Of a stretch of 64,000 bases of DNA, positions 4,804-45,482 are shown piece by piece. The stretch is from the NCBI GenBank assembly GCA_028110365.1, contig JAOGVT010000004.1, positions 4,926-68,925 on the forward strand. The letters are read 5' to 3'. Each line of letters opens with the position of its first letter. Position 1 is the stretch's first letter. The DNA comes from Flavobacteriales bacterium (GTDB lineage: Bacteria; Bacteroidota; Bacteroidia; Flavobacteriales; UBA7430). Made by a program: the position numbers and the translations under genes. The notes beneath the pieces were generated by a model that was not told the DNA's origin, did no database searches, and saw only the letters and a list, made by a program, of their open reading frames with translations.

Positions 4804-4808
4804 AATTT

Positions 4809-5225
4809 TTAATTAAAAATTTTAATGTAATTAGGTGATATCTTTTGTGGTATTAGTATTTCGGCTTGATCGTCTCCATTATTAAATGCATTCCTCCAGT
4901 CATAATTAATAGTTGCTCTATTCGCTGCTGCATTTGTATCAGAATATAACACTCCATTATTATTAAGTATTGAATCATCTATTTGTAGCCAAACCAATTC
5001 CTGAATTGTTCCATCGTTTAAAACTCGATTAAGCATTTTATGTGAAGGTTTTAGAGCTAATCTCACATATGGTCCCAATCCTTTGTTGCTATCAAGATTT
5101 CTTGACAACTCATTTGAGCTTAGAATAGCATCAATATCATATTTAAATATGAGAGGCCAGGACAATAATCCATGTCTCATAATAGAATTTACATTTCTTG
5201 AATCGGTAAAATGATATAATGCCAT
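4809..5225 (-). CDS. miniature DarT-like (DUF4433-like) ADP-ribosyltransferase-fold protein
   Basis: It starts ALYHFTDSRNVNSIMRHGLLS, compared with DarT h-YH-h-T..NL.sI...GL. It has a central VLYSDTNAAA and a C-terminal QAEILIPQKISPNYI, matching the DarT catalytic-Glu block AE-h-L-h. At 138 aa it is shorter than canonical DarT. Confidence 0.45.
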   Translation of the reverse strand: MALYHFTDSRNVNSIMRHGLLSWPLIFKYDIDAILSSNELSRNLDSNKGLGPYVRLALKPSHKMLNRVLNDGTIQELVWLQIDDSILNNNGVLYSDTNAAANRATINYDWRNAFNNGDDQAEILIPQKISPNYIKIFN

Positions 5226-10260: not shown

Positions 10261-13227
10261 ATGTTTGCTCAACTAAGGTCTATTCTAAATTTCTTAATTC
10301 CAGCTACCTGTTTGGCTGCTTCAGTTTATATTTTTTTAAATCTCATTCTATTATATTGGTTTATAGTAGATCCTCAAAGTTATTGGGATATTTGTTCATT
10401 TACTTTTGTCATGGCTTTTGTCATGTCAATTATTTTACCAACGTTTGGTATTTATCTAGCATCACTTTCTAAGCTGGGTGAAGACTCAATATTTTATGGA
10501 ATTCCAATCGGGGTGTTTCTGTTTTCTTATGTTCTAATAAATATTCCTCCCACCATATTTTTTCCAAATTCAGCAAGAGAGATGTTTGAGTCTTTAGATA
10601 AGATAGAAGAGTATATTGATGAAGCTAATCATGAAAAATCCATTGATGCCCTAACGGAATTAAACAATAAATATACTAACTATCAAACAAGTAAAATTTG
10701 GTTTGTGAAAGATAAGTTTCTCAAATCAGAGGAAGGATTGCTTATTATAAAAAATAGGGAGTATCAAATTAAAAAATTATATGGGACTTTACTGATGCTT
10801 ACTGGCGATAAAACTATAGCTGAAGAGCCTTTGACTGAAGCTGTATTAATTGCCGAAAATTATTTTTACGATGATAAGAGAGATTTTTTAGCGTTAGCTT
10901 ATCAATCGCTTTCACAGTATTATAGAATGATTGGGGACATATATAAATCTGAAGAGATTTATAATAAAGTAAGGCCTATAGATGGGGATCAACATGATGT
11001 AATTGATATTGTACAAATGCTTGTAGATAGAACTTTATATTATTATCGATTTGGTGATACTCAAAGTGCATTGGATGTTTATAAAATAGCTTATGATATA
11101 TATGGTAAATCAGCTGAATCAAAGGAGAATTTTTTTTATAAAGAGTTTCTTTTAGGATATATAAAAGCACATCTTCAAAATAGAAGTTTAGATGCCTTAG
11201 GAGATTTATTTAATGAAATCGAAGATCTTGTTGGATCCGATAAAAAAAGTACTAATTACATAGATTTTATTTGTCATAAAGCAGAGTATGAAAGTTATTT
11301 AGGAAACCTTAATGTATCAGAGGAGTTATATAATAAAGTAATAGATAAGATTAGACCAAGTAGTAGCTTATTTAATTTTTTTAAATCAACTAAAACACCC
11401 CTTGAGCTAATTCCTAACCTTCGAAGCTATGCTAAATTTATTTTAAAAAAAGGCAAATTTAAAGAGGCTCAAAAACTCTATAATGAATTACTAGAAATGT
11501 ATTCTTTAATAGGAACTGCTTCCCCAGAATTTTTTTCGAATTTTATCAAAATACAACTAGGTCTTCACAATAAAAATACTGCAGTTAGACTATCGTTAAA
11601 AGGAGATTCATTATTTTTAAACACATCTGTACCTCAAATATTTAAAGTAGCCTCTATAAGAGAAAAAGAAAGTATCTCTAGAGCTTTGGAAAATTACTTT
11701 TTAACAACAAATTCAGTATACTTATTAACTGATCTAGATGAAAGATTAGGTTCTATTTATAACAATGTTTTGGCAACAAAAAGCATCTCTTTATTGTCCC
11801 AAAATTATATCGAAGAATTTCTGATTTCCAATGACGATAATACTTTATTATCTTCCTACAAATATTTAAAAAGAGAGAAGGAAAGATTAGATAATTCTCT
11901 TTTCTCAATGAATGATTTAAATATAGATTATCAAACCCAATTTGATAGGATTTCTTTCAAAGAAAAAGAATTGTATAATAAAATCAACAATATTGATGGG
12001 TTTTCACCATACGATTTAACAGCTGTTGATTGGGGAATGATACAATCAAATTTAAGTGAAAATGAACTTGCAATTGAATTTGTTGCTTTGCTCCGTGATC
12101 CTAATAATTCAGATTCACTGAGTTATTTTGCTTTAATCATTGACTCAAATTCTAAGTTCCCAAAAATTATTGAGCTATGTTCTCAAAAGGATATTAACCA
12201 GATACTAAACAGTAAAAATAATTTAATAGATAGGGTGAATTCTATCTATTCAGATGTTTCCAATTCAGATCTATATAATAAGATTTGGGCACCTTTAGAT
12301 TCATGTTTAAAAAATAAGAGTCATGTATATGTTTCATTAAGTGGTATTTTAAATTCTATATCAATTCCTGCGCTTACCATTGATGAGCCATATTCAGTAA
12401 AAGTTCTTAGTAGTACTCGTCAAATAATTGAAATTAAAAGTGCTAAGCATAATATAATTAAAAAGTCACTTGTGTTTGGGGGTGTAGACTTTGATTTATC
12501 TTTAGATGATTCATTAATGTCTAGAAGTCAAATAAATCATCAAGATAGATTCTTATATAGAAATATTGCAGATTTAAATTTTGAAAAATTACCTGGAACT
12601 ATTTCAGAAACTCAGTCCATTGAAAATCTATTGGATAATAATAATATCAATAAAATAATTAGAACTGGTGCATCAGCAAGTGAACTTTCATTTAGACACT
12701 TAGTAGAATCTGAAAAACCTAATCATATACATATAGCTTCACATGGATTTTATTTTCCCAAAAAAAGAAGTGTTGTAATGAAGAATAATATATTTAAAAT
12801 TCAAAATGATTATTCTGTTATTAATAATCCACTATTTAGATCTGGTTTATTATTTGCCGGGGCAAATAATAAAAATAAATCATCTCTTTCAAATGATGGT
12901 GTTTTAACTGCCAATGAAATTGCAACTTTTGATCTTTCTCAAGTCGACTTAGTAGTTCTTTCAGCATGTGAAACCGGGTTAGGAGATGTAATAGGAAATG
13001 AAGGTGTTTTTGGATTACAAAGGGCTTTTAAAATGGCTGGTGCCGATAAATTACTTATGAGTCTTTGGAAAGTTCCTGATAGAGAAACTTCAATTTTAAT
13101 GTCAGAATTTTATAAATACTTGTTTGATGGGTATAATGCTCATGCAGCTCTGAAAAAAGCTCAAAATAAGATGAGGGAAGATTATCCAGAGCCATTTAAT
13201 TGGGCTGGGTTCTTTGTGTTGGAGTAA
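10261..13227 (+). CDS. membrane-anchored TPR-CHAT (caspase-like) protease
   Basis: Three to four N-terminal TM helices and a long TPR-like middle. The C-terminus carries HIHIASHGFYF (His), LVVLSACETGLGD (Cys) and GLQRAFKMAGADKLLMSLWKVPD, typical of CHAT. Confidence 0.8.
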   Translation: MFAQLRSILNFLIPATCLAASVYIFLNLILLYWFIVDPQSYWDICSFTFVMAFVMSIILPTFGIYLASLSKLGEDSIFYGIPIGVFLFSYVLINIPPTIFFPNSAREMFESLDKIEEYIDEANHEKSIDALTELNNKYTNYQTSKIWFVKDKFLKSEEGLLIIKNREYQIKKLYGTLLMLTGDKTIAEEPLTEAVLIAENYFYDDKRDFLALAYQSLSQYYRMIGDIYKSEEIYNKVRPIDGDQHDVIDIVQMLVDRTLYYYRFGDTQSALDVYKIAYDIYGKSAESKENFFYKEFLLGYIKAHLQNRSLDALGDLFNEIEDLVGSDKKSTNYIDFICHKAEYESYLGNLNVSEELYNKVIDKIRPSSSLFNFFKSTKTPLELIPNLRSYAKFILKKGKFKEAQKLYNELLEMYSLIGTASPEFFSNFIKIQLGLHNKNTAVRLSLKGDSLFLNTSVPQIFKVASIREKESISRALENYFLTTNSVYLLTDLDERLGSIYNNVLATKSISLLSQNYIEEFLISNDDNTLLSSYKYLKREKERLDNSLFSMNDLNIDYQTQFDRISFKEKELYNKINNIDGFSPYDLTAVDWGMIQSNLSENELAIEFVALLRDPNNSDSLSYFALIIDSNSKFPKIIELCSQKDINQILNSKNNLIDRVNSIYSDVSNSDLYNKIWAPLDSCLKNKSHVYVSLSGILNSISIPALTIDEPYSVKVLSSTRQIIEIKSAKHNIIKKSLVFGGVDFDLSLDDSLMSRSQINHQDRFLYRNIADLNFEKLPGTISETQSIENLLDNNNINKIIRTGASASELSFRHLVESEKPNHIHIASHGFYFPKKRSVVMKNNIFKIQNDYSVINNPLFRSGLLFAGANNKNKSSLSNDGVLTANEIATFDLSQVDLVVLSACETGLGDVIGNEGVFGLQRAFKMAGADKLLMSLWKVPDRETSILMSEFYKYLFDGYNAHAALKKAQNKMREDYPEPFNWAGFFVLE

Positions 13228-14477: not shown

Positions 14478-15632
14478 TTATGTATATAATCCAGAAATTA
14501 ATTTAAGAAATTCAATGTCTTTGCTTTGATCATGCTTTCTAGATATTAATATTTTCTTTGGAGAAGTATTGTTGAAGTAGATCCTACCTGATGGGTCTCC
14601 TGATCCACTTGAATCTTGTGTCATTTTATATCTACACTCATGATAATTTCTTGCTTTTTTTATTTTTTTCCTACCCTCTAGTAGTTCTTGATTCTTTTGA
14701 ATATTAATAATTGTTTTGAAGATTATTATCTTTTCTTTTTCATCACATTCACATGCAAATTTTATTGAGTCTCCAAGGAATTCTATATTATTACAAACCC
14801 CTTTAATTGTAGTTTCAAATTGTGAGACAATTTTCTTTTTTAATTTTTCTCGTTCTTTTTTAAATTCTCTTTCTATTACCTGTTTCTCATCTTTTAATAA
14901 CAGCGTTTCTTTTTTTATTTGATTGTCTTTCGATTTTAATGCACTATCATGTTCTTTAATAATACTGTCAAACTCCTCATCTCGATCATATATTCCGAAT
15001 TTGTTTTTTATGAGTTCATAGATTCTATCTGTACTATTGTACTTATCTTCAGAGAATTCAATTTTTATTAACCAATAATACTGTACACCGGAATTAGATG
15101 GCATTGTCGGAAATGAAACATCTAAAACTTTAACCTCAATATCTTCTAAATAATTTACTATGTCATCTTTAATTTTATCGTTTGAGTTTAAATATAAATA
15201 GTAATTATTATTAGATCTTTCAAAATGACAAACAATAGGCATCTCTTGATGGCTTATGTTGATAGATTCATCATGCTTTATAATAATTGATAAGCCAAAT
15301 ATCTTTCCATATAAATCTGTGTTTATTTTACATATTTTCGCTTTACAACTACATTTATTGTCTCTTAATTCTGGGGCTAATTTTTGAGCTATATTTTTTG
15401 GTATATATCCAAGTGATTTATCATTATTTCTTTTAACATGAATTGCATTTTTATCATGAATATTATTTTCTTCTATACTTAAATATACAGTTTCATTTAT
15501 CCTGCATAGTTTTATGTTATCACCTCTTCTATTATGTTGAGTTCCAATAATATTAATTGGAGTTGATACATAATTTGACTTATCTTCTTTATAAAAGTAT
15601 TTAGTAATCAGTCTATATATCTTTTTAAACAT
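14478..15632 (-). CDS. HIRAN-domain protein with coiled-coil middle and unknown C-terminal domain
   Basis: The block IIGTQHNRRGDNIKLCRINETVYLSIEENNIHDKNAIHVKRNNDKSLGYIPKNIAQKLAPEL fits the HIRAN pattern (G.q....g....L.re..N..D.nAi.V......lGyip...A..l). A K/E-rich coiled coil spans aa 225-265. The tail RIYFNNTSPKKILISRKHDQSKDIEF vaguely resembles RelE/Gp49. Confidence 0.55.
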   Translation of the reverse strand: MFKKIYRLITKYFYKEDKSNYVSTPINIIGTQHNRRGDNIKLCRINETVYLSIEENNIHDKNAIHVKRNNDKSLGYIPKNIAQKLAPELRDNKCSCKAKICKINTDLYGKIFGLSIIIKHDESINISHQEMPIVCHFERSNNNYYLYLNSNDKIKDDIVNYLEDIEVKVLDVSFPTMPSNSGVQYYWLIKIEFSEDKYNSTDRIYELIKNKFGIYDRDEEFDSIIKEHDSALKSKDNQIKKETLLLKDEKQVIEREFKKEREKLKKKIVSQFETTIKGVCNNIEFLGDSIKFACECDEKEKIIIFKTIINIQKNQELLEGRKKIKKARNYHECRYKMTQDSSGSGDPSGRIYFNNTSPKKILISRKHDQSKDIEFLKLISGLYT

Positions 15633-15651
15633 AATGCAGGGAATAAGATGA

Positions 15652-16386
15652 CTATAATGTACTTGTTTTCATTTGGTAATCACAATACTTACAAGTCTTT
15701 GAATGTTCTGGAATATGATCTTGATTGAGAAGTGAATGAATTTCATTAAGAGTACTTTCTACCCAATTATCATTTCCTATGTATGGAATTAAACTTATTT
15801 TAAAATCCATTTTTTTGTCAAAGCGGGGTTTGTTATTTATTCCATTACAGTAGACAAAATACCCAGTATCAGAAACTTTAAATCCATTACGACGAAGCAG
15901 ATGTTGGTAAAATTCCATTTGACGTTTATATCCAATTTGCCAGTCGGCATCTAGAGTAACCTCTCCTGCTTTTGAAGTCGATTTATAGTCAACTACAATA
16001 AGTTCATTATTATCAAGATTGATCCATAAATCATCAACTGCCCCAAATACATGAAATTTCAAAGATTCATGATTATATGAAACACCTTTGAAGTTGAAGC
16101 GCCATTCTTCTATTTTTTCATGTTTAAATGGCACAGCATTAATACCTATTTTTTTAATGTATGGGTGAGGCTTTTGAGTTTCTCGGTATTGGTCAAATTC
16201 GTTTTTCAGAAGGCTGTCAACTGCAGAATTAAGATTAAATGGGAACCCAGGAGGTTGTCCTATTCCTAATTTTCGATCTAGAAAAAAACAACGTTTACAA
16301 TTCAGGTAAAATTCAACTTTAGAACGGCTAATTTTAAAGTACTCAGGTCTATTAGGGTTATATTTCCCTCTATAAGTTTTAATCAT
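15652..16386 (-). CDS. Cas4-like PD-(D/E)XK nuclease with terminal Cys cluster
   Basis: N-terminus ISRSKVEFYLNCKRCFFL, core GAVDDLWI...LIVVDYKSTSK...YKRQMEFYQHLL, and C-terminal Cys residues in TCKYCDY. Confidence 0.6.
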   Translation of the reverse strand: MIKTYRGKYNPNRPEYFKISRSKVEFYLNCKRCFFLDRKLGIGQPPGFPFNLNSAVDSLLKNEFDQYRETQKPHPYIKKIGINAVPFKHEKIEEWRFNFKGVSYNHESLKFHVFGAVDDLWINLDNNELIVVDYKSTSKAGEVTLDADWQIGYKRQMEFYQHLLRRNGFKVSDTGYFVYCNGINNKPRFDKKMDFKISLIPYIGNDNWVESTLNEIHSLLNQDHIPEHSKTCKYCDYQMKTSTL

Positions 16387-17134: not shown

Positions 17135-17345
17135 TAAATATAGATTTGTTATATGCTAATATAACTAAAAAGTAAAAATATATGTCTCATAACCTACCAA
17201 ATGGTATAATGGGATTATAAAATTTTTTAAGTTATAGTAAACCCATACAGGTAGTATAATTTCGCTTCAAATAGTATAAATTAACATAATATCTTTGTGT
17301 AAAATTATACCATTAAGCATAATTTACTTATTTTTGAAATGCATT

Positions 17346-17494
17346 AAGAGTTACTATAAAGTATGCCAACCGATCTTTAACCAAGGCGCGGTGGAAATTA
17401 TGTGAGACAACCGTCTAAAAATTAAATTGGTTATCCATAATTTATATTGACGCAATGTTTTTGACATAAACTGTCACAAACGTTTTATTTATTT
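17346..17494 (+). ncRNA. structured RNA-like element A1 with terminator-like hairpin
   Basis: Conserved 5' block AAGAGTTACT..AGTATGCCAACCGATC..CGGTGGA. Predicted stems are CAACCG/CGGTGG, UCUU/AAGG, AAUUAUG/CAUAAUU and AGAC/GUCU. This is followed by GTTTTTGACA-taaac-TGTCACAAAC and a T-rich run (17457-17494). Confidence 0.4.
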
Positions 17495-17509
17495 GTACAA
17501 CAATACATC

Positions 17510-17631
17510 AAGAGTTACTCTGAGTATGCCAACCGATCCTTTCCGGGCACGGTGGATTGAATGTGAAGCAATCTGCTTAAAAACAAAGGAATTCCTTTCA
17601 CATTGTTCTTGGTGTTTAAATTTATTTAAAC
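17510..17631 (+). ncRNA. structured RNA-like element A2 (paralogue of A1); abuts the ORF start
   Basis: It has the same 5' block, with predicted stems UCC/GGG, AAUGUGA/UCACAUU and AAGC/GCUU plus an A-rich tail. A U-rich tract follows, then the ATG at 17632. Confidence 0.4.
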
Positions 17632-18147
17632 ATGAATGAGATGAAATCAGAAATCAAAGAAATTAGAACCATTAGTGGTGAACTTATCGATTTTGTATGG
17701 GGCCTAGATGATCATACCCCAATCGAAATTTTTTACCGTGATGGAAGTCGTGAACTCAATTGTACTCCGTTTAAGTTAAAAGAGCCTGCTCGGTTTTATA
17801 CAAATCGTGCAGCTGTTGTTCATAGAGCATGGCGAGAAAAAATGGATAAAAAGAGAGAATTTATGGATCGATATGAATCGGTTTATTTTCAGAAGTTCCC
17901 TCGCAAGTATTATGAGCGTAAAATTGCTTTAACCATGCAAGAACGCAATCAAGAAAACAAACGATTTGCTTTAAATATAGAAAGTCTAAAGGAGAATTCC
18001 GATGTAATACGATTTGCTATGCCAAGTATGTGTGCAGCTAGCTTCAGTGTAGAAAAAGAATGGCTTCAAAAAAAATCAGGATGGAACTATAGAGTAAAAA
18101 TTAATGCTGAAATTTTAAAAGATGGAAAAATCCAAAAGTCAATTTAA
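17632..18147 (+). CDS. hypothetical 171-aa protein (phage-like); N-terminal 107 codons are duplicated at 34.9 kb
   Basis: ORF with no motif recognised. Its 5' part is inside the direct repeat. Confidence 0.5.
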   Translation: MNEMKSEIKEIRTISGELIDFVWGLDDHTPIEIFYRDGSRELNCTPFKLKEPARFYTNRAAVVHRAWREKMDKKREFMDRYESVYFQKFPRKYYERKIALTMQERNQENKRFALNIESLKENSDVIRFAMPSMCAASFSVEKEWLQKKSGWNYRVKINAEILKDGKIQKSI

Positions 18148-18418
18148 AGTAGGGGATAAGGTGCTTTGTATGAACGATGCATTTAGTGTTAAAGACCCGC
18201 AAGTGATGTTTATGAATTTTCCTAAAAAGGGTCGTGAATATACGATTCGTGGTTTTTGTGGTCTTGGAATATCTATGTGGTTAGAAGAAATAGTAAACCA
18301 ACCCTTACCTGGACGAAATGAAATATGGTTTTACAATTGGCATTTCAGGAAAAAAGAAAATTTGCTGATTAAAATTAAAGCATCTAAAACGAAAGTCAAA
18401 GAATTAGAATTAGTCTAG
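18122..18418 (+). CDS. small 98-aa protein, paralogue of the next ORF
   Basis: Shares FKVGDKVLCMNDAF..FPKKGREYTIR..WLEEI with FKKGDKVLCLNSDF..FPSGAKVYIVR..YLEHI in the next ORF. Confidence 0.5.
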   Translation: MEKSKSQFKVGDKVLCMNDAFSVKDPQVMFMNFPKKGREYTIRGFCGLGISMWLEEIVNQPLPGRNEIWFYNWHFRKKENLLIKIKASKTKVKELELV

Positions 18419-18733
18419 ATGTCATTTATTAAAAACCTTAAAATTAAAATTATGAAATTTAAAAAAGGTGATAAGGTATTGTGCTTGAATTCAGATTTCG
18501 AGAAAAAAGTACCAAATGCAAAATTTCCTTCAGGAGCTAAAGTTTATATTGTAAGGTCATATTCAGAAGAATGGGACACGTTATACTTGGAGCATATTTA
18601 TAACCCAAAATTATATACAAAAAAAGGGATGTGTGAAATTGGTTTTGCTTCCTGGCGCTTTGCTTTATTAAAAGACGATATTAATTATCAAAAATTTGAC
18701 AATCCAGGTAAATGGAGAAAAATTAGATTTTAA
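18419..18733 (+). CDS. small 104-aa protein, paralogue of the previous ORF
   Basis: See the previous entry. It starts immediately after the preceding stop. Confidence 0.5.
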   Translation: MSFIKNLKIKIMKFKKGDKVLCLNSDFEKKVPNAKFPSGAKVYIVRSYSEEWDTLYLEHIYNPKLYTKKGMCEIGFASWRFALLKDDINYQKFDNPGKWRKIRF

Positions 18734-21953: not shown

Positions 21954-23198
21954 TTATCGATTTAGAGTAAAGTAAATTGCAATTGCTATATTTTTTGCCA
22001 TCATTGGTGGAACTGCATTGCCGATCATTTTATAATTATAACCCATTCTTTCTTTAAAAATAAAATCCTCAGGAAAAGATTGAAGAGATGCTGCTTCTCT
22101 AACTGTAATTGATCTTGATTGTTTTTCATCGGGATGAATAAACATCAACCCATCTTTGTATAGATGTGCTACAATAGTAGGGGAGGGCTTATTCCAATCA
22201 AGACTTCTGTATTTTCCGTGTGAAGATTTTTTCCCTACTAAATCATTATAGAATTTAATTTTTACATCAGAATTCCAACTATTCATATTGTTTTTTAGCC
22301 AATTTGAAAAGACTTTTATATCACGCTGATTTTGATATCTTGGAATTAGGTCATCGCTAAGATCAATATTCTCTATAGCCTTATATGAAGTCTTTCGACC
22401 ATATATTTTTTCAGTTTTATTTGAGGGCTTAAATTTTGGTAAATGAGATATAGCGTGGTGAACAGTGGAGTGCTTTTTTACAAATTGTTTTTTAATTTCA
22501 TTGTAAATTGAGTGTAGCTTTAGATCACTAGAATTCGCTGTTTTAATTCCAATAATAATAACTCTATTTCTTTTTTGAGGAACTCCTAAATCAGCTGCAG
22601 AGAATACAGCATTTTTAAGATCTTTAGAAGGAGGAATTTCGTAGCCTATTTTTTTAAATGCTTCATAAATTCGTTCTGTTACAGGTTTTCCTCCAGGCTG
22701 GGCACTTAACATTCCGGGTACATTTTCAAAGACAAATACAGTTGGTCTAAATTCATCAACTACTTTAACAAAACTCTCAAACAAGTAGTTTCTGTAGTCA
22801 TCTTTCATGGAGTTTTTATCCTGAGCTCTTCCTGCAATCGAATAGGCTTGACATGGAGGACCTCCAATGATTAGATCAACCTTTTTATTGCCAACTAAAG
22901 AGCGAAGACCACCATTTATTATTTGCTTGTGATTTGTTGCTCCATAATTTTTTAAAGTTCCCTTTCCCCAATTTCCATTAATTAATTCCTTTGTCTTTTG
23001 AATGTCAAAATGAATAACTCGTTTAAGAGAATCTTCATTGGAGTGTTTCCAACGATCTGTTAGACGATGACGAAGCGTTCTAACCATTGGTATTTCCCAT
23101 TCAACATGAGCCAACCCTTCATACTTATTAGAAGATAAAAACCCTTCGGAGAGACCTCCGCAACCTGCAAATAAATCAATGAAAGTCAATTTCTTCAT
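21954..23198 (-). CDS. DNA (cytosine-5)-methyltransferase
   Basis: Motifs FIDLFAGCGGLSEGF (I), GGPPCQAYS (IV), ENVPGM (VI), QKRNRVIIIG (VIII) and GNAVPP (X). Confidence 0.9.
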   Translation of the reverse strand: MKKLTFIDLFAGCGGLSEGFLSSNKYEGLAHVEWEIPMVRTLRHRLTDRWKHSNEDSLKRVIHFDIQKTKELINGNWGKGTLKNYGATNHKQIINGGLRSLVGNKKVDLIIGGPPCQAYSIAGRAQDKNSMKDDYRNYLFESFVKVVDEFRPTVFVFENVPGMLSAQPGGKPVTERIYEAFKKIGYEIPPSKDLKNAVFSAADLGVPQKRNRVIIIGIKTANSSDLKLHSIYNEIKKQFVKKHSTVHHAISHLPKFKPSNKTEKIYGRKTSYKAIENIDLSDDLIPRYQNQRDIKVFSNWLKNNMNSWNSDVKIKFYNDLVGKKSSHGKYRSLDWNKPSPTIVAHLYKDGLMFIHPDEKQSRSITVREAASLQSFPEDFIFKERMGYNYKMIGNAVPPMMAKNIAIAIYFTLNR

Positions 23199-24601
23199 TG
23201 TGTCATTTTATTTAGTGTGTCAATGAATTGCTCTGCAATAATACTAGCAAGAGCTGGAGGTACCGCATTGCCTATTTGCTTGAATTGGTTTCGAGTGCTT
23301 CCAGTGAAAAAATACCAATCTGGAAATGATTGAATTCTAGCAGCTTCTCTAGGTGTAATACTTCTAGGCTTTTCTCCAGGATGAACATAAGAGTTTCCAT
23401 CTGTCTCAAGATGTGCTATTATTGTCTTTGACACTGAGTTTGGATTTAGTTTAAAGTATTTGTCTCCAAATCCTTTTACTTGTTTTTCACCTTTTTCATT
23501 TATGTGAACTCCATAGGTGACTTTAGACAGTGCTTTTTTGTTCACAGGATCATTTAGGTACTTCCCTGGAACTAAATTCTTGTATATAAATAAATCTCTT
23601 TTGTTATGATATCTTGATTTGTGATTAAATAGGAAGGGTGTTTTTATTTTTTTACCCTTGTAATTATTAATCAATTTTAGGTATTTCTTGTTGCTATTAG
23701 ACAGGAGTTTATTGTATGTAATCTCTGAGATGTTCTTTCCAAAACACTTAGAATTTGAATAAGATACTTCACTTTCTTCTTTGTAATTATTAGGTTTTGG
23801 ATTTGCAGAAATTTTAGGCAAGTCACCAATCACATCATTAACACATAAGTTGCTTGTTTTTTGATCTAATATTGCCTTAAAAACATCTACTGCTTTTATG
23901 CTATTATTTTCAGCTAGATCTTTTCTGATTCCTATGAAAAATATTCTTTCTCTATGTTGAGCTAATCCAAAATCTTTCGCATTTAAAACCTCAGATGATA
24001 CATCATATCCGAACTCTCCGGTATTCTTAAGAGCTATTTCAATTAAGTCTCTATAACCTGATGCTGAAACCAAACCTTTTACATTTTCAATCAACACAAT
24101 TTTTGGATTTAATTTCTCAGCAAACTTTAGATAGTACTTGAAAAGTTGATTTCTAGGATCGTCAATAAATCCTTTAGCTCTTTCTTCGGCTGTCATCTTT
24201 TTTGATCTCCCAATCATAGAAAAGCCTTGACAGGGGGGGCCACCAACTAATACATCTGTTGACTTAATGTTATGAAGTATGTTCTGTACGTCTATATTCT
24301 CTTTTAGTGAATCAGTCTTTCTTTTTAGCTCTTCCTCTCTGTTGGTTTTAACTACTGCATGACCAACAACTTCTTTTTTTACTTTTTCTAATCCAAGAAA
24401 CTCATAAAGTTCAATGATATCTCCTAGTACAACTTTACTTTTATCTGTCTTAGGATGAGTTTGCTTTAAATTGTGTTTTAATGTGTTTAGTGCAGGTCTT
24501 GAAATATCATTTGCCAAGTCAAGGTGAAAACCTTTATTACCAAAGCCAACTGTAAGTCCGCCAGCTCCGCAAAACATGTCTATATATGAGTAATTTTTCA
24601 T
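23195..24601 (-). CDS. DNA (cytosine-5)-methyltransferase (second, distinct)
   Basis: Motifs DMFCGAGGLTVGF, GGPPCQGFS, IENVKGL, QHRERIFFIG and GNAVPP. A 4-nt ATGA overlap with the downstream MTase suggests translational coupling. Confidence 0.9.
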   Translation of the reverse strand: MKNYSYIDMFCGAGGLTVGFGNKGFHLDLANDISRPALNTLKHNLKQTHPKTDKSKVVLGDIIELYEFLGLEKVKKEVVGHAVVKTNREEELKRKTDSLKENIDVQNILHNIKSTDVLVGGPPCQGFSMIGRSKKMTAEERAKGFIDDPRNQLFKYYLKFAEKLNPKIVLIENVKGLVSASGYRDLIEIALKNTGEFGYDVSSEVLNAKDFGLAQHRERIFFIGIRKDLAENNSIKAVDVFKAILDQKTSNLCVNDVIGDLPKISANPKPNNYKEESEVSYSNSKCFGKNISEITYNKLLSNSNKKYLKLINNYKGKKIKTPFLFNHKSRYHNKRDLFIYKNLVPGKYLNDPVNKKALSKVTYGVHINEKGEKQVKGFGDKYFKLNPNSVSKTIIAHLETDGNSYVHPGEKPRSITPREAARIQSFPDWYFFTGSTRNQFKQIGNAVPPALASIIAEQFIDTLNKMTQ

Positions 24602-25268: not shown

Positions 25269-27407
25269 ATGAAAAAGACGGCAATTTATAACATCTCAAA
25301 AAATAAACTAGCTCAACAAAATTATAGAGTCCTTATGAAAAAGGACGGGTTTTTCTATTGGGATTGTAAAGCGATTAGTAACGTAAAAAAAGGTGATAAA
25401 GTTTTTATACTAAATCGGAGTTTGAATCAGTATTTATTTACAGAAGTTGAAGATGTTAATATTAAGGTTGAGAAAAATTACAATACTGGCAAAACAATAT
25501 TTAGTGATAAGCAAGTTTCTTTTGAAATATCATCATCAGGACACAGTGATTCGAATTTTTTAAGAATGAAAATTATTGACTTTTCATTTGTAGATCCTAG
25601 AATATCAGATCTAGGAAGTGGGAATTATACGTTTGTATTTAATGAGTCACTTAATAATAAGAATAATAGAGTTGATAAATTACTCACATCTTTCAACAGT
25701 AATGATTGTTCTAATGCCTTTAATCATTTATTATCAATGTTGGGAAAAGAGTCTATCGATAAAGAAATTAATAGGAACCTATTTAAATATTATTTATTCA
25801 AAGTTAAAAATCAAGATTTAGAAAGAAATCCTACGATTAATTTAGCTGCATCCACCGATTTTTTTGGACTTAATTTAGATCATGGTGAAAAAAATGAAAT
25901 TCCTTTTTTAGATCAAGCAACAGTCTCAAATATTTCTTTTCAAAAAAGAGAAACAAGAAATGAAGTCAGATTTTTTTTCGATGATATTTTAGAAAAATAT
26001 GAAGTAAAGGAAAATGATATTATAGTATTTAGTAGAGAAAATGATCTCTTTGGATTTGTTATAGTAAGGATTTCAATGAAAGAGTATCCAACATTAAATG
26101 CTATAATGGAAGGTGAAAATCATAAGTTAACAAATAGTCTAGAATCCATTGATGGGATTAAAATAAAATCACAAAATAGCTTGAATATGAGTGAATCTAA
26201 AAATATTATTTTGTTTGGTCCTCCAGGGACTGGTAAGACTTTCACAACAAAGAAAAGATCAGTCAAAATTATTAATGGAAATGAGAATAATGCAGATGAG
26301 ATTTTCTATAAAGAGATCAAAAAACCTGATGGCAGAATTAAATTTGTAACAATGCATCAGAGCTTTTCTTATGAGGATTTTATGATTGGTTTAAAGCCAG
26401 TAATAGAGGACGACTCAGAAGAGTCAATGAAATTTGATTATGTGCCTGGTGTATTTATGGAAATATGTAAAAATGCATCTCAAAATATAGATCAGAATTA
26501 TGTGCTAGTCATAGATGAGATTAACAGATGTAATGTTTCCAAAGTTTTTGGAGAATTAATTACTCTAATAGAAGAAGATAAAAGAGGGAAATTTTTTACC
26601 ACATTAATTAATGGTGAGCCATTTACTGTGCCTTCTAATTTATTCATTTTAGGTACAATGAATACGGCTGACAAATCAATTGCAATGATAGATATAGCTC
26701 TTAGAAGAAGATTTGAATTTGAAGCAATGTATCCAAATTTGGAATTAGTAAAAGATCTAGAGAAGAGAGGATTTATGAAGAAGTTAAATGAGGAGATACT
26801 AATGAATAATAAAACGGTTGATTTTTTAGTTGGGCATTCAGATTTCATGAAAGATTTAGAGCTCGTAGATATTATTAATAAAAAAACTATTCCATTATTA
26901 AATGAATATTTTAGGGGTGATATGAATGTTGTAGAGAATATTTTGACTTCTTGTCTCACTGCAATTAATAATACAATTTCAATTGATAAAGAGTGGAAGG
27001 ATAACATGAGATTACTAAAAGTTAAACAAAAATATAAAGAATCATCTAAGTCTTCAACTTCTATTTCTCATAAACCTGAAAATCCCAGTGACGAAGAAGA
27101 AATTATAAAGATCGAAAAAAGAATTCCCAAATGGTTTAGAAATTCGAACCAAAAAAATCATAAAATATTAGTTAATGCCATTAAATTAATGGGTAATGAT
27201 AATAAATTTATTCGTAAAGAATTAAACGATTACCTAATTGATAAAAATCTTGATGTCGGAGATTTTTCTATTAATTTTCGTCATATGAGTATCATTCAAT
27301 TTAATAATCATGCCAAGGTATTTAACAAATTAGAAGATGATTACTATGAATTATGGGAGCCGGTAAAAGACTTCATTTTATCTGAGTATAAAAAAACACA
27401 GGATTAA
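25269..27407 (+). CDS. McrB-like AAA+ GTPase restriction subunit with divergent N-terminal DNA-binding region (B3-like?) and C-terminal extension
   Basis: ILFGPPGTGKTF (Walker A), LVIDEINRCNVSKVFGELITLIEEDKRG, GTMNTADKSIAMIDIALRRRFEF. The N-terminal ENDIIVFSRENDLFGFVIVRIS is reminiscent of a B3/pseudobarrel tail. Confidence 0.8.
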   Translation: MKKTAIYNISKNKLAQQNYRVLMKKDGFFYWDCKAISNVKKGDKVFILNRSLNQYLFTEVEDVNIKVEKNYNTGKTIFSDKQVSFEISSSGHSDSNFLRMKIIDFSFVDPRISDLGSGNYTFVFNESLNNKNNRVDKLLTSFNSNDCSNAFNHLLSMLGKESIDKEINRNLFKYYLFKVKNQDLERNPTINLAASTDFFGLNLDHGEKNEIPFLDQATVSNISFQKRETRNEVRFFFDDILEKYEVKENDIIVFSRENDLFGFVIVRISMKEYPTLNAIMEGENHKLTNSLESIDGIKIKSQNSLNMSESKNIILFGPPGTGKTFTTKKRSVKIINGNENNADEIFYKEIKKPDGRIKFVTMHQSFSYEDFMIGLKPVIEDDSEESMKFDYVPGVFMEICKNASQNIDQNYVLVIDEINRCNVSKVFGELITLIEEDKRGKFFTTLINGEPFTVPSNLFILGTMNTADKSIAMIDIALRRRFEFEAMYPNLELVKDLEKRGFMKKLNEEILMNNKTVDFLVGHSDFMKDLELVDIINKKTIPLLNEYFRGDMNVVENILTSCLTAINNTISIDKEWKDNMRLLKVKQKYKESSKSSTSISHKPENPSDEEEIIKIEKRIPKWFRNSNQKNHKILVNAIKLMGNDNKFIRKELNDYLIDKNLDVGDFSINFRHMSIIQFNNHAKVFNKLEDDYYELWEPVKDFILSEYKKTQD

Positions 27408-27412
27408 CATCT

Positions 27413-28828
27413 ATGTATAACTCAATAAACATTTTTGAGCTACAAAAAAACAAACCTATAGGTGATGATGTCAATTTTGATGTCAATGAAATTAACCATG
27501 CTCTCCAAAATATATGGGATAATAAATATGCCTTTCATAGTTTGTCAGATAATTTCTCAAGTGAATCAAAAGATCAAAAATTTCTGACTATTAATGAAAA
27601 TTCAATAGAAGCCGGAAAATATATTGGCGTTATTAAAACCAAGAGTGCTACAATTAATATTTTTCCAAAAATATTTGATACTGAAGAAAACAGAACTCGA
27701 ATAAATGATAGAGATTTTCATCAATATGTTTTTTCTCATTTAATATGGTGGATGTCTTTTTCAGATAAAATTAGATTTCCAAAAGTATACTCTTCTTTTG
27801 ATTCTACAACAAATACTGATTTACTCGAATTATTGGTGTATAACTTTGCTTATTATACAGAAGAACTCATTAATACTTATTCTTATAGTTCTTATGAACT
27901 AGTTTCTGAAAATCTTTCTCAGGTAAAGGGGAAAATTAATTTTAATCAATATATTTCAAACATTGCTTCTGGTAATTGGCATCAGATTCCTTGCGAGTTT
28001 GATGAGTTTAGATTTGATAATCAGTTAAATAGGATTATAAAATATGTTTGTAAAGAACTTTTGCTTCCATATATTCAAAATTCAAATACTAAAAATTTAT
28101 TAACTTCAATCATTCATTCCTTAGATGAAGTCCAGGATGAATTTGTGACTCTTGAAGATTGTGATAAGGTTATGCTTAACCCATTATATGAAGAGTATGT
28201 TTTAGTTCTTGACTATTGCAAAATGTTTCTATCAAATAGCATTGTAAGTGCTGATTCAAAAGACAATACTATTTTCTCATTTGTTATAGAGTCCTCAAAA
28301 TTATTCGAAAACTTTATTGAAGGATTTATTAAAAAGAATAAGGCAAGTGTCGGTGTTAAAAAAATTCACACCCAAAAAGGAAAATATATTGGAAAGGATC
28401 TTGAAACTAAACAATCTATTTTTAAAACTTCAATTGATTTCTTGATAGAAAAAGATGATACAGAAAAAGTTTTAGTTGATGCAAAATACAAGCGTGTTTG
28501 GGCGGAAAAAGGAGAGGGCAAAAAAAGAAATTATGGAATAGAAAGTGCTGACATATATCAGATGCTGGCTTATTCAAATCTTCATAAAATTCCTAAGGTG
28601 ATTTTATTTTATCCTTTATATTTTGATGAGGACGATAATATCTCGCACGCATTTGAATTTGATAATCAGGCAAATAAATTAAATAAAGTAAATATTGAGG
28701 CTAGAACACTTCCATTAATTAATCACGATGAAAATAAATTCAAAGGGTCACATTTTAAATTAAATGATATTTTTTCATCTAATAATGATGAAATATGTAA
28801 ATTGTTAAGTGGCCTATATCAGAAATAA
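27413..28828 (+). CDS. McrC-like PD-(D/E)XK nuclease subunit
   Basis: Lies immediately downstream of the McrB-like gene. Core SIDFLIEK...VLVDAKYKRVW...DIYQMLAY. Confidence 0.7.
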   Translation: MYNSINIFELQKNKPIGDDVNFDVNEINHALQNIWDNKYAFHSLSDNFSSESKDQKFLTINENSIEAGKYIGVIKTKSATINIFPKIFDTEENRTRINDRDFHQYVFSHLIWWMSFSDKIRFPKVYSSFDSTTNTDLLELLVYNFAYYTEELINTYSYSSYELVSENLSQVKGKINFNQYISNIASGNWHQIPCEFDEFRFDNQLNRIIKYVCKELLLPYIQNSNTKNLLTSIIHSLDEVQDEFVTLEDCDKVMLNPLYEEYVLVLDYCKMFLSNSIVSADSKDNTIFSFVIESSKLFENFIEGFIKKNKASVGVKKIHTQKGKYIGKDLETKQSIFKTSIDFLIEKDDTEKVLVDAKYKRVWAEKGEGKKRNYGIESADIYQMLAYSNLHKIPKVILFYPLYFDEDDNISHAFEFDNQANKLNKVNIEARTLPLINHDENKFKGSHFKLNDIFSSNNDEICKLLSGLYQK

Positions 28829-28844
28829 TTTTTAATGATTTAAA

Positions 28845-30539
28845 ATGAAAAAAGAAATAATCCCAGCATCAGCAAGTCGAGTAGTTCAAGCATTATCTAA
28901 TATTGGCTACTCGCTCCAATCTTCTATTTGTGATATTATAGATAATTCTATTTCTCATGGTGTAGCGAATAATATTTATATCTGTTTTGATTATTTAGAA
29001 CCTAAAGCTAAGTTCTATTTTATGATTTATGATGATGGAAAATCTATGTCTGAATCAAAACTAAAAGATGCAATAAGATTAGGTAGTTCCAAAGAAAATT
29101 ATTTGGATGATGATCTAGGGAAATTTGGAATGGGTTTAAAAACTGCATCTTTAGCTCATTGTAATACTTTGTCAGTGATTGCTAAACAAAAAAAATCAAA
29201 AAAATCAAGTTGTGTTATTTTAGATAAGATTTTAATTCAGTCAGAGGATAAATGGGTTTATTCCATTTTAAATGATGAGGAAATTAATGAAAAATATTTA
29301 GAGTTAAAACAAATTTTAAAAAGATGTTACACCAAAGAGAAGTTTTTTTTAAGTGACACTTCATATACTTTTTTAGTTTGGGAAGATCTTTTTTTAATGA
29401 AAAACAAAAGTGATAAAGCATCATCAGGTGCTCAGATATCTAGACAAATCACTAAAGAACAATTAATAGTTGAAGCTCATTTAAGAATGGTATTTCATAG
29501 ATTTTTAAATGAAGAAAATGGAGCTAGAAAAGTAAATATATATTTTAATGGTTCAAAATTAAATGGATGGAATCCCTGCTTACCGAATTTAAAAAACACT
29601 GTTAAATACACTGATAAAAATCAGGCTAATAAAGAATATTTGGGCTTTAAGTTTGATCCACATAAATCAGAAGTAAAGATAAAAAGATACATTCTCCCTA
29701 AGAAAAGTGAAATAGAGAAATATTCTGATAAAGAAGATTTGATAATAACAGAAAAATCTCATACAAACAAAGTTATGAAAATTGATAAATGGCAAGGCCT
29801 ATATTTTTATAGAAATAACAGGTTAATTGATTATGGAGGATGGTATGATGGGACAGGTACAGAGCCACATATAACATATGCAAGAGCTTCAGTTGATTTA
29901 ACTTCAGATCATGATCAATATTTCAGTCTAAATATTAATAAATCAAAAATTAGTATTGATAATTCTTTTAAAACTTTCCTAAAAGAAAACATGCCAAAGT
30001 TTAGGCAAAAAGCAAAAGAGCTTTATGGCAAAAAGAAAGTAGAAACCAAAAACTCAGTTAGAGATAGTTCTGATAAGTTAAAAGAAATTATAAAAGTTGA
30101 GGGAGATAAAAATGAAATAGAAATTAAAGGTCCAAACCGAAATAATGATAAAACTAATGTTGTTGAAGTTTCTAATATTATTGGAAAGTTTGTTGATCAC
30201 GATAAAAAATATTTAAAACAATCAAGTGAGTTACTGAAAAAGAAAATAATTTCTGAAGAACTCTCTGATGACCAACTTCTATGGGAAGTAATTCCTGACC
30301 CACATAATGTTATGCTTGTTAAAATTAATTCTCTCCACGAAATTTATAAATTATATTATGAAGACGAGAATAAAAAAAATGAAAAGATCACAGCAGTAAT
30401 TGACTCGATTATAATTTCATTAGCATTCACTGAATTGTGTTACAAAACAGAAAAAACAGAACAACTTTTTGAAGATATAAATAGAACAACTGGAAAATTA
30501 TTGAATAAGCTAGTTGATAATAAAATTGTTAAAAAATGA
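28845..30539 (+). CDS. GHKL (HATPase_c_3 / MORC-like) ATPase
   Basis: SICDIIDNSISHG (N box), IYDDGKSMS (G1) and LGKFGMGLKTASLA (G2). Confidence 0.75.
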   Translation: MKKEIIPASASRVVQALSNIGYSLQSSICDIIDNSISHGVANNIYICFDYLEPKAKFYFMIYDDGKSMSESKLKDAIRLGSSKENYLDDDLGKFGMGLKTASLAHCNTLSVIAKQKKSKKSSCVILDKILIQSEDKWVYSILNDEEINEKYLELKQILKRCYTKEKFFLSDTSYTFLVWEDLFLMKNKSDKASSGAQISRQITKEQLIVEAHLRMVFHRFLNEENGARKVNIYFNGSKLNGWNPCLPNLKNTVKYTDKNQANKEYLGFKFDPHKSEVKIKRYILPKKSEIEKYSDKEDLIITEKSHTNKVMKIDKWQGLYFYRNNRLIDYGGWYDGTGTEPHITYARASVDLTSDHDQYFSLNINKSKISIDNSFKTFLKENMPKFRQKAKELYGKKKVETKNSVRDSSDKLKEIIKVEGDKNEIEIKGPNRNNDKTNVVEVSNIIGKFVDHDKKYLKQSSELLKKKIISEELSDDQLLWEVIPDPHNVMLVKINSLHEIYKLYYEDENKKNEKITAVIDSIIISLAFTELCYKTEKTEQLFEDINRTTGKLLNKLVDNKIVKK

Positions 30540-34498: not shown

Positions 34499-34614
34499 TA
34501 TATATGTCTTCACAATCTTTAAGTATTGTTTCAAATATATTTATTAAATCTTACATCTTTTTTAAAGGGATTTTCTCATTCAATAGAATTTCATTAATTT
34601 GTAATTAGTACATT

Positions 34615-34912
34615 AAGAGTTACTTTAAAGTATGCCAACTGATCTTTAGCCAAGGCTCGGTGGAAAATTATGTGAGACAACCGTCTAAAAATTTAATAGG
34701 TTATCCCTAAATTATATCAATGCAAAGTTTTTGACATAAACTGTCACAAACGGTTTATTTATTTGTATAACCAATACATCAAGAGTTACTCTGAGTATGC
34801 CAACCGATCCTTTCCGGGCACGGTGGATTGAATGTGAAGCAATCTGCTTACAAACAAAGGAATTCCTTTCACATTATTCTTGGTGTTTAAATTAATTTAA
34901 AACATTGAAGAG
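34615..34912 (+). ncRNA. second pair of structured RNA-like elements (B1, B2)
   Basis: B1 has C->T in the CAACCG arm (CAACTG), which still allows a U-G pair with CGGTGG. B2 is almost identical to A2. The terminator-like hairpin is conserved at 34727-34751. Confidence 0.4.
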
Positions 34913-35215
34913 ATGAAATCAGAAATTAAAGAAATAAAGACCATTAGTGGTGAACTTATTGATTTTGTATGGGGCCTAGATGATCATATCCCAATCGAAG
35001 TTATTTACCAGGACGGAAGTCGTGAACTCAATTGCACTCCGTTTAAATTAAAATAGTCTGCTCAATTTTATACAAATCGTGCAGCTTTTGTTCATAGGGC
35101 ATGGCGAGAAAAAATGGATATAAAGAGAGCGTTTATGGATCGATTTATTTTCAGAAGTTTCCTCGCAAGTATTATGAGCGTAAAATTGCTTTTAACCATA
35201 CAAGAACGCAATCAA
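34913..35215 (+). pseudogene. decayed copy of the 5' part of the 171-aa ORF
   Basis: In-frame TAG at 35054 where copy 1 has GAG. A 10-nt deletion (atgaatcggt) relative to 17871-17880 shifts the frame. Confidence 0.7.
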
Positions 35216-35229
35216 TAAAAAAAACAAGC

Positions 35230-38274: not shown

Positions 38275-38506
38275 AGCATTATGTTTAGCATAAATTTGAG
38301 AACTAATAACCAGGTGAGGTGTCAAGTTTCTATACTTGACACGAAAAAAGTGTTGAGATGAATTGGGATTTTGTCTAAAAAAAAGACAAACACCAGTTAT
38401 ACACTGAGATATGCAAAAAAAGGCCATTTTTGAAAAATTGCCTTTTAGTGAAACGTCTGAAAATCAATGATTTGAAAAAATTGATACCCTTTGAAAAGGG
38501 CTTTTG

Positions 38507-45412: not shown

Positions 45413-45482
45413 TTACCCCTCCAAATCCCTAAACTTTTTTAGAATATCTTATTGGTATTGGTTTGGGCTTAATCGTTCATCA

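Follow-up and report, generated by a model that had tools for sequence, protein, structure and literature searches.

S-adenosylmethionine (SAM) riboswitches of the SAM-I/IV class (RF01725; Weinberg et al. 2010; env87, PDB 4L81) are set apart, according to the original description (Weinberg 2010) and a structural comparison (PMC6890682), by a SAM-I-like core, a P2 helix without internal loop or P2-loop pseudoknot, a hairpin that follows P1 (the post-P1 hairpin) and a pseudoknot, PK-2, in which the P3 loop pairs with the 3' tail. We analysed a stretch of 64,000 nucleotides from a Flavobacteriales bacterium (GenBank assembly GCA_028110365.1, contig JAOGVT010000004.1; the whole stretch is called the window below), in which two structured elements, A1 and A2, lie upstream of an open reading frame (ORF) of 171 codons. 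A first-pass annotation, made from the letters of the window, had recognised them as tandem, paralogous, RNA-like structured leader elements with compensatory changes, a description borne out both by the sequence and by other loci; the two lie in one 5' untranslated region (UTR). We put at roughly 85% the reading that both elements are SAM-I/IV riboswitches, arranged in tandem in a single 5' leader (17329-17640) and controlling an ORFan gene together with two SH3-like small proteins.

Like the described SAM-I/IV riboswitches, the window elements combine a full-length match to the model with a SAM-I-like pocket, a plain P2, the post-P1 hairpin and PK-2, and they share the marine Bacteroidota habitat. 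They differ from env87, which has a P4 hairpin between P3 and P1, in lacking P4. Further differences are a P3-P1 junction (J3/1) of 3-6 nt, an innermost P1 pair that is usually unpaired and near-threshold scores; an expression platform made of a box and a hairpin over an A/U-rich start region, with no Shine-Dalgarno sequence involved; and target genes that are ORFans on a mobile island. SAM-IV riboswitches (RF00634) likewise have no P4, a post-P1 hairpin and a PK-2 from P3 loop to 3' tail, but their P2 is split into P2a and P2b by an internal loop and its loop forms a further pseudoknot, PK-1, whereas P2 in the window elements is a 5-bp hairpin with a loop of 3-4 nt. SAM-I riboswitches (RF00162) have the ligand-pocket sequence and the three-way P1/P2/P3 arrangement in common with the window elements; they possess a kink-turn in P2, PK-1 and P4, none of which occurs in A1 or A2, and no PK-2. 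In Rfam clan competition SAM-I/IV stays the best model for the window elements against SAM-I as well as SAM-IV.

Tandem arrangements of SAM riboswitches are also known. A 2022 survey of tandem riboswitches counts 164 double SAM-I examples, so that homotypic SAM-I tandems are common, and reports tandems of SAM-I, SAM-II, SAM-II with SAM-V and SAM-II with SAM-I/IV. The SAM-II followed by SAM-V in 'Candidatus Pelagibacter' is described there as a bi-mechanism tandem with two-level, pseudo-cooperative control. The window leader resembles such tandems in having two complete SAM riboswitches, with a putative terminator-type hairpin first and a putative translation-type platform second, and differs in that both units are of the same class (SAM-I/IV twice) and that the genes are not those of sulphur or SAM metabolism. 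A homotypic SAM-I/IV tandem is absent from the table of the 2022 survey. The riboswitch class is already known; what is new is the homotypic SAM-I/IV tandem, the box-and-sequestor platform in Bacteroidota and the association with ORFans on a defence island.

Class assignment and aptamer architecture

An Rfam covariance search matched RF01725 to the + strand only, at 17336-17432 (A1) and 17500-17594 (A2), each with 43.7 bits against a gathering score of 41.1 and with model positions 1-99 covered. The first-pass annotation could match the elements to no known riboswitch or non-coding RNA family, and had itself named a match to a known family as grounds against novelty. With both elements above the gathering threshold, its novelty claim fails, and an RNA flagged there as unfamiliar, once assigned to an established riboswitch class, is not to be treated as a new RNA family. 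Homologues do exist outside this genome, in marine metagenome loci and in genomes: about 20 other loci with orthologous or related leaders score between 41.2 and 59.6 bits. Family membership rests on sequence and structure, and both aptamers are predicted from these to bind SAM.

The annotation had left it open whether the elements are cis-regulatory or an independent small RNA. Its first option holds. That they form an undescribed structured RNA family or a free-standing small RNA is very improbable: although a short RNA of about 150 nt could arise at the terminator-like hairpin that follows A1, the full-model match lies above gathering, the family-defining pseudoknot and helices are present, and in all loci the leader that holds both aptamers directly precedes a conserved ORF.

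A sequence check located the block shared by both elements. In A1 it consists of AAGAGTTACT (17346-17355), ATAA, AGTATGCCAACCGATC (17360-17375) and, further on, CGGTGGA (17389-17395); in A2 of AAGAGTTACT (17510-17519), CTG, AGTATGCCAACCGATC (17523-17538) and CGGTGGA (17550-17556). The inner hairpins noted in the first pass, UCUU[UAACC]AAGG in A1 and UCC[UUUCC]GGG in A2, are present as described. So are the mini-hairpins, AGAC/GUCU in A1 and AAGC/GCUU in A2, both of which run on into an A-rich tail. In terms of the SAM-I/IV fold, the inner hairpin together with CAACCG/CGGUGG is P3, the mini-hairpin is the post-P1 hairpin, and the A-rich tail leads to the 3' strand of PK-2. The CAACCG/CGGUGG closure is a genuine part of P3, but it is not made of ordinary pairs throughout, as the bulged AA opposite U belongs to the SAM pocket. 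The elements that had been overlooked are P1, P2 and PK-2 (Table 1).

We parsed 26 aptamer units in Python with anchored helices, drawing them from the window itself and from 13 metagenome loci and 4 genomes. A SAM-I-type core, comprising the P1 A-U/U-A pairs at the junction, the P1-P2 junction (J1/2) with AAGAG and the P3 bulged AA opposite U (CCAACC...GGUGG), is invariant in all 26 and aligns to the upper-case positions of the RF01725 consensus; which of the core bases contact SAM was taken from published SAM-I and SAM-I/IV structures. Consisting of a G-U pair plus UACU/AGUA around a variable loop of 3-4 nt, P2 lacks an internal loop, a kink-turn and a P2-loop pseudoknot. J3/1, at 3-6 nt, leaves no space for a PK-1 helix.

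The first-pass annotation had further proposed that each element is closed by a 7-bp stem. The complementary segments exist, AAUUAUG (17396-17402) with CAUAAUU (17436-17442) in A1 and AAUGUGA (17560-17566) with UCACAUU (17598-17604) in A2, but they do not close the aptamers: both stems use the 3' strand of the true P1 and hence are alternative, anti-P1 pairings. As a structural element the A1 stem was rejected, since it is not kept in loci L004, L010 and L015 or in the second copy of the leader in the window (copy B, below). For A2 only a 5-bp core, AUGUG/CACAU, is kept, in all type-2 leaders, including L003, where CGCAU pairs through U-G.

Covariation, switch boxes and the proposed mechanism

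Covariation is observed in P3, the post-P1 hairpin, the pseudoknot and the box helix described below, together with conservation across loci. Across the 26 units distal P3 shows compensatory exchanges from U-G to G-C and from U-A to C-G, both of which were found independently by RNAalifold, and the post-P1 hairpin exchanges G-C for A-U at two positions. PK-2 forms a helix of 4-6 bp at a tail offset of 8-12 in 23 of the 26 units, with at least 10 different pair combinations, among them UAACCA/UGGUUA, UAGCC/GGUUA, AACCU/AGGUU, UUCC/GGAA, UGCC/GGUA, UACUU/AGGUA, UUCUCA/UGGGAA, ACCC/GGGU and GCCA/UGGU. Its mean helix length is 4.53, compared with 3.34 ± 0.15 for shuffled tails, and 0 of 2000 shuffles attain the observed mean; kinship among the few related sequences is close, and neither this nor the other shuffle control allows for phylogeny. 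A different register for the aptamer 2 pseudoknot, CCUUU/AAAGG, was rejected, as UUCC/GGAA covaries (UGCC/GGUA, UACUU/AGGUA) and is homologous to the register of aptamer 1.

In all but one of the 26 units, a switch box of 8 nt (consensus UUGRUGYA) follows the post-P1 hairpin at a distance of 26-33 nt. Its complement begins one nucleotide ahead of P1 and takes in the P1 5' strand together with the first two A of J1/2. Box pairing averages 7.16 of 8 positions against 6.24 ± 0.11 for shuffled segments (0 of 1000 shuffles reach the observed value), and the helix covaries, with C-G, U-G or U-A at one position, G-C, A-U or G-U at another and a U-A to A-U exchange in L011. In L020, where the riboswitch stands ahead of metK, an A-to-U change of the junction base is matched by a compensating U-to-A change in the box, as read from the sequence. 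The duplex of box 2 with the P1 5' strand is estimated at -11.1 kcal/mol, that of P1 alone at -4.0 and the sequestor hairpin H2 at -8.3.

Every start-codon platform (those of the aptamer 2 leaders, of the single switches L016-L019, of L028 and of the metK switch L020) contains a hairpin that has the box within its 5' strand and whose 3' strand reaches into or adjoins the start codon. In the window this hairpin is H2, which has a basal extension of UUCUU with AA/GAG ending directly before ATG 17641; in L006, L008, L011 and L012 its closing G-U pair becomes A-U and the stem is 1 bp longer. The earlier description of A2 as running through a U-rich tract straight into the start codon is therefore incorrect, as a conserved 9-bp hairpin (17612-17633) intervenes. 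The box helix is present and the start region open in the ligand-free, unconstrained minimum free energy (MFE) folds of several units, and the sequestor hairpin is present in folds with the aptamer helices enforced. A further candidate pairing, of UUGGUG with UGCCAA in the P3 5' strand, was rejected because a G-to-A change breaks it in L006, L008, L011 and L012.

The platform of aptamer 1 is of another kind. The terminator-like hairpin seen in the first pass is there, GUUUUUGACA (17457-17466) with UGUCACAAAC (17472-17481) forming 9 of 10 pairs before a U-rich run; taken alone the hairpin has -8.7 kcal/mol, and it is kept in all 9 tandem leaders. The best candidate for an antiterminator, GUCUAAAAAU (hairpin 3' strand plus tail) with GUUUUUGAC at -5.3 kcal/mol, is not convincing, being pseudoknotted with respect to the box helix and showing no covariation. 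Upstream, a Bacteroidetes-type motif TAnnTTTG precedes P1 by 4-5 nt in 15 of 16 intact first or only aptamers and never stands before the second aptamer of a tandem, against a background of 0.8 per kb per strand. By analogy with the published Bacteroidetes consensus, the motif is a putative promoter element. Its presence before the first aptamer only indicates that both aptamers share one transcript, beginning essentially at P1.

The following mechanism can be proposed. Transcription would start a few nucleotides past the TAnnTTTG motif, essentially at P1 of aptamer 1, and each aptamer would fold P1, P2 and P3 around the SAM pocket (AAGAG; CCAACC...GGUGG), with the post-P1 hairpin and the P3 loop-tail pseudoknot added. 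When SAM is absent, the switch box would capture the P1 5' strand and the first two junction A's; when SAM is bound, P1 would be locked and the box set free. For aptamer 2 the freed box would serve as the 5' strand of H2, which would cover the A/U-rich region before ATG 17641 and turn translation off. The stem AAUGUGA/UCACAUU, which captures the P1 3' strand, would be the complementary half of the alternative fold. In the case of aptamer 1 the box abuts the hairpin and U-run, which would most likely act as a transcription terminator. High SAM would thus act on the operon twice over to switch it off, so that the response is probably steeper than a lone switch affords, and low SAM would switch it on. 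A translational OFF switch is the simplest reading of the aptamer 2 folds. SAM-OFF polarity is likely by analogy, because the same platform precedes metK in L020, a gene that SAM would be expected to repress. The first unit may act by termination, as its hairpin and U-run suggest; with one promoter motif before aptamer 1 only, a hairpin and U-run after aptamer 1 and a sequestor after aptamer 2, the leader would then be a bi-mechanism tandem like SAM-II/SAM-V.

Several observations weigh against the assignment or this mechanism. The window aptamers exceed the gathering score by only 2.6 bits. The innermost consensus P1 pair (c-g) is unpaired in 22 of the 26 units, J3/1 is 2-3 nt shorter than in the RF01725 consensus and P1 has only 4-5 bp; the modest scores are explained by the usually unpaired innermost P1 pair, the short J3/1 and the absence of P4 between P3 and P1. 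P2 is invariant in the 26 units and so without covariation, and most of P1 is invariant as well, an invariance that the search pattern partly enforced. De novo RNAalifold on 14 units recovers P3 only, since P1, P2 and the post-P1 hairpin are short and AU-rich and their loops were misaligned by MAFFT; because de novo consensus folding is weak here, the helices were parsed by anchors. A strict terminator scan found 0 sites by its criteria, and in thermodynamic folds the hairpin after aptamer 1 forms with or without the enforced aptamer. Together with the lack of a convincing antiterminator, this makes SAM control of termination the weakest step of the model. Finally, the downstream genes have no known SAM link, except for the metK-adjacent homologue.

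Some of these points could also be explained if the elements were specificity variants of the SAM-I/IV fold, sensing a related compound such as S-adenosylhomocysteine, a SAM breakdown product or another metabolite. The borderline scores, the lost top P1 pair and the shortened J3/1 would fit such a change of ligand, as would the non-canonical gene context, since a different ligand would account for target genes outside SAM metabolism, and close variants of SAM aptamers with a changed ligand are on record as precedents (PMC10853860). We consider it unlikely, because all consensus-conserved pocket positions are present (CAU/AUG in P1, AAGAG, CCAACC...GGUGG), because the metK-associated L020 has the same P3 pocket and platform, with a J1/2 that differs by one base (UAGAG) for which the box compensates, and because a homologue of the regulated small proteins is co-transcribed with metK.

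It is quite unlikely, too, that the aptamers are true SAM-I/IV aptamers with another output logic, either a vestigial aptamer 1 with a constitutive attenuator hairpin or an ON switch. The formation of the first hairpin in both constrained states speaks for this, as do an A-C mismatch in box 1 of the window, the weak duplex of that box (-4.0 kcal/mol) and the occurrence of single-aptamer leaders (L003, L006, L008, L013), which implies that one switch is sufficient. However, aptamer 1, its pseudoknot and its box are kept and covary in 8 independent tandem loci, and the platform is homologous to that of the metK switch. We therefore retain the reading of two SAM-I/IV riboswitches in tandem.

Table 1 Features of the leader, its second copy and the surrounding island, in window coordinates
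Feature	Position	Strand	Details
TAnnTTTG -7 motif, Bacteroidetes type (TATTTTTG)	17329..17336	+	4 nt upstream of aptamer 1 P1 5' strand
Aptamer 1 (SAM-I/IV)	17340..17433	+	RF01725 43.7 bits; helix parsing, pair tables
Aptamer 1 P1	G17341-U17344 with A17400-U17403	+	helix parsing
Aptamer 1 J1/2 AAGA	17346-17349	+	helix parsing
Aptamer 1 P2	17350-17364	+	UACU/AGUA closed by G-U; helix parsing
Aptamer 1 P3	17365-17395	+	loop UUAACCA 17377-17383; helix parsing
Aptamer 1 post-P1 hairpin	17405-17416	+	helix parsing
Aptamer 1 PK-2	UAACCA 17378-17383 (in P3 loop) with UGGUUA 17428-17433	+	helix parsing
Switch box 1 UUGACGCA	17447..17454	+	pairs U17340-A17347, 7/8 positions; present in ligand-free MFE fold
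Terminator-like hairpin	stem 17454-17466 with 17472-17484	+	loop UAAAC; U-rich run UUUUAUUUAUUU to 17494; folding
Aptamer 2 (SAM-I/IV)	17504..17591	+	RF01725 43.7 bits; helix parsing
Aptamer 2 P1	A17505-U17508 with A17561-U17564	+	helix parsing
Aptamer 2 J1/2	17510-17513	+	helix parsing
Aptamer 2 P2	17514-17527	+	helix parsing
Aptamer 2 P3	17528-17556	+	loop UUUCC 17540-17544; helix parsing
Aptamer 2 post-P1 hairpin	17566-17578	+	helix parsing
Aptamer 2 PK-2	UUCC 17541-17544 with GGAA 17588-17591	+	helix parsing
UCACAUU	17598..17604	+	alternative partner of aptamer 2 P1 3' strand (AAUGUGA 17560-17566)
Switch box 2 UUGGUGUU	17609..17616	+	pairs A17505-A17511 (ACAUCAA), 7/8 positions
Sequestor hairpin H2	17606..17640	+	stem GUGUUUAAA 17612-17620 with UUUAAACAU 17625-17633; folding
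ORFan, first regulated gene	17641..18147	+	168 aa from ATG 17641, 171 aa from ATG 17632
Two paralogous small genes	18122-18418 (98 aa); 18419-18733 (104 aa)	+	predicted SH3-like beta-barrel
Copy B tandem leader	34605..34865	+	B1 40.4 bits, B2 36.5 bits; promoter motif and box 1 lost
ORFan pseudogene remnant	34913..35215	+	in-frame TAG at codon 48, 10-nt deletion, 1-nt insertion
CARF protein (island)	2577-3944		
DarT with NADAR partner (antitoxin; island)	4096-5225		
WYL regulator, ARPP-1, ADP-ribosylglycohydrolase, MazG-like protein (island)			
CHAT-TPR protein (island)	10261-13227		
HIRAN protein and Cas4-like nuclease (island)	14478-16386		
Two Dcm methylases (island)	21954-24601		
McrBC (island)	25269-28828		
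HATPase_c_3/Z1/DUF4420 module (island)	28845-34131		

The second copy and related loci

The leader recurs in the window as a second copy, 17342-17955 matching 34611-35215 over about 600 bp with 89-99% identity by segment, as had been noticed in the first pass; the two copies are in direct orientation and 17.27 kb apart. Copy B spans the region from P1 of aptamer 1 to inside the ORF. Its aptamers, B1 (34605-34702) and B2 (34771-34865), score 40.4 and 36.5 bits, both under the RF01725 gathering score; B1 carries the CAACUG variant reported for it, and H2 of copy B carries an extra A. Identity between the copies is 92.4% for aptamer 1, 88.7% for platform 1, 98.9% for aptamer 2, 89.1% for platform 2 and 91.8% for the ORF remnant. 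The first-pass annotation had taken the retention of the structure beside a decayed ORF as a sign of selection. This argument is not supported, as the whole leader is no better conserved than the pseudogenised ORF (93.0% vs 91.8%, Fisher p = 0.65) and the promoter motif and box 1 are lost. Aptamer 2 alone stands out (98.9%, p = 0.014), and that among several comparisons. The best reading of copy B is a partial duplicate in decay, and a putative function as RNA is supported by conservation and covariation across the other loci, not by copy B.

The duplication breakpoint lies at about 35215. The ORF at 35101-35574 is a chimera, its 5' part being the out-of-frame tail of the decayed copy B gene. 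From ATG 35230 it encodes an Erf-like single-strand annealing protein (PHROG 2324), followed by an excisionase-like gene of 88 aa and the tyrosine integrase described below.

On the integrative island, 17 kb of cargo are enclosed by the direct repeats of 600 bp. At the DNA level H2 is a near-perfect palindrome (TGTTTAAAT..ATTTAAACA), and RGTATAAT-like repeats lie just upstream. Such features would be expected if the conservation reflected a DNA-level element (an att site, an origin or an operator array) or a recent duplication, with no RNA involved. This is barely credible given that the pairings are kept through G-U wobbles and strand-specific compensatory changes, that the covariance model matches the + strand only and that the element stands upstream of the same gene in loci with unrelated flanks. 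The repeats themselves resemble AATRGTATAAT and occur four times upstream of the riboswitch promoter, in a divergent intergenic region (17200-17210, 17251-17260, 17270-17280 and, inverted, 17304-17314); three of the ten RGTATAAT matches in the whole window fall within this 110-bp stretch (17200-17314). They could be operator sites for a DNA-binding regulator.

At least 12 marine Flavobacteriales loci have this leader, in single or tandem form, ahead of the orthologous gene. With the 171-aa protein as query, 15 metagenome loci were retrieved, and RF01725 is found directly upstream in each one whose sequence extends that far. The two aptamers both exceed the gathering score in L001, L002, L004, L010, L011, L012 and L015, and also in L022 and L024; L003, L006, L008 and L013 have a single one. 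The single unit of L003 (5863-5976) is a natural hybrid, a type-1 aptamer joined within its 3' tail to a type-2 platform, which suggests recombination between the two units of a tandem; its pseudoknot is weakened to 3 bp (ACC/GGU). The conserved start of the gene is ATG 17641 (MKSEIKE...) and not ATG 17632, which is missing in diverged orthologues.

A DNA pattern scan yielded 4 related single switches, whereas scanning GTDB genomes with the protein gave no match. In IMG/VR viral contigs the riboswitch pattern does not occur, and 12 matches there to a looser core pattern were rejected as not being riboswitches. L016 (770-869) and L018 (4172-4271, - strand) are single SAM-I/IV riboswitches of the same clade at the edges of variable islands in marine Flavobacteriales genomes. 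Only a short non-conserved ORF lies downstream of each, followed by a convergent conserved membrane-protein gene; nearby are a BglII-like restriction enzyme and a Dcm methylase (L018) and a helicase (L016). Antisense control is possible for these two.

Regulated genes, the island and what the switch may serve

The first regulated gene is an ORFan. Its 171-aa product has no Pfam, PHROG, PADLOC, NCBIfam or PDB-sequence match and no relatives in IMG/VR, it is not similar to the 118-aa product of the first gene in the L028 cassette, and the AlphaFold model is unusable (predicted local distance difference test score, pLDDT, 48). Its close relatives number only 32, all from marine metagenomes, and a profile search of 1.84 billion representatives returned only 9 clusters at 50% identity. 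Behind the ORFan there invariably stand one or two paralogous genes for proteins of about 100 aa, for which an SH3-like beta-barrel is predicted (pLDDT 79), with generic SH3/KOW fold matches only (E > 0.01) and no PDB sequence match. The 98-aa protein of the window is identical to a GenBank protein from a Flavobacteriales bacterium.

Relatives of the small proteins offer a possible link to SAM. The aptamers sit in the 5' UTR of ORFans, and a homologue of genes 2 and 3, P0110 (44% identity, E = 1e-13), has its gene 23 nt downstream of metK with a SAM-I/IV riboswitch ahead, in a chromosomal context (L020). P0107 (42% identity, E = 2e-17) belongs to a different three-gene cassette behind a SAM-I/IV riboswitch of 59.6 bits (L028). 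Other relatives occur in phage-like gene arrays beside a DNA methylase or thymidylate synthase, where no riboswitch was detected. As the family stands behind SAM-I/IV riboswitches at metK, in the L028 cassette and on the island, it appears to have been wired repeatedly to SAM sensing. In L028 (2165-4620) the riboswitch and an operon for proteins of 118, 90 and 363 aa have a complete tRNA (2165-2238) on one side and a tRNA fragment (4564-4620) on the other, a layout that resembles a small cassette inserted at a tRNA gene. In L022 and L024 (1299-4252) the tandem controls genes for a 168-aa protein, a 99-aa protein, a DUF2779 protein (492 aa, nuclease-like family) and an 83-aa SH3-like protein; this diverged cassette shows that the operon content is modular.

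The G+C content of the window is 27-33% across 1-38,000 and 33-40% beyond, and the low-GC stretch ends at a tyrosine integrase (37075-38427, - strand) and a tRNA-Ser (38506-38591, - strand). The left 38 kb or so is therefore an integrated island, its left end lying outside the window; it is densely occupied by genes of defence type (Table 1). Outside the island, a secreted acidic protein of 549 aa (40908-42557) contains an internal tandem duplication of 423 nt (41156-42022) with 92% identity, and its last 129 nt (42416-42544) are repeated 3 kb downstream (45482-45610) with 91% identity.

Bacteroidota lack Shine-Dalgarno-dependent initiation. A compact, covarying platform of box and sequestor illustrates how a riboswitch can gate translation in this phylum. 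Riboswitch-linked ORFans have often led to new biochemistry, and the locus yields a SAM-regulon candidate, SH3-like small proteins that are found at metK and in a tRNA-flanked cassette and are duplicated on a defence-rich integrative island. This distribution suggests that the small proteins act on SAM supply or on SAM-dependent DNA modification in mobile elements. Our literature searches returned no paper linking SAM riboswitches with defence islands or with the sensing of SAM lyases. Speculatively, and with a small chance of being right, the leader may be a SAM-depletion sensor for the island, turning the operon on only when SAM collapses, for example through a phage SAM lyase or an inhibitor of MetK; the cassette might then be a guard-type defence, a MetK-modulating module or an island-induction module, and the link between small protein and metK might reflect a direct interaction with SAM synthetase. 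If this were true, a phage would by such means disarm the methylation-dependent systems of the island (the two Dcm methylases, McrBC and the Z1/HATPase module), and the cassette would respond.

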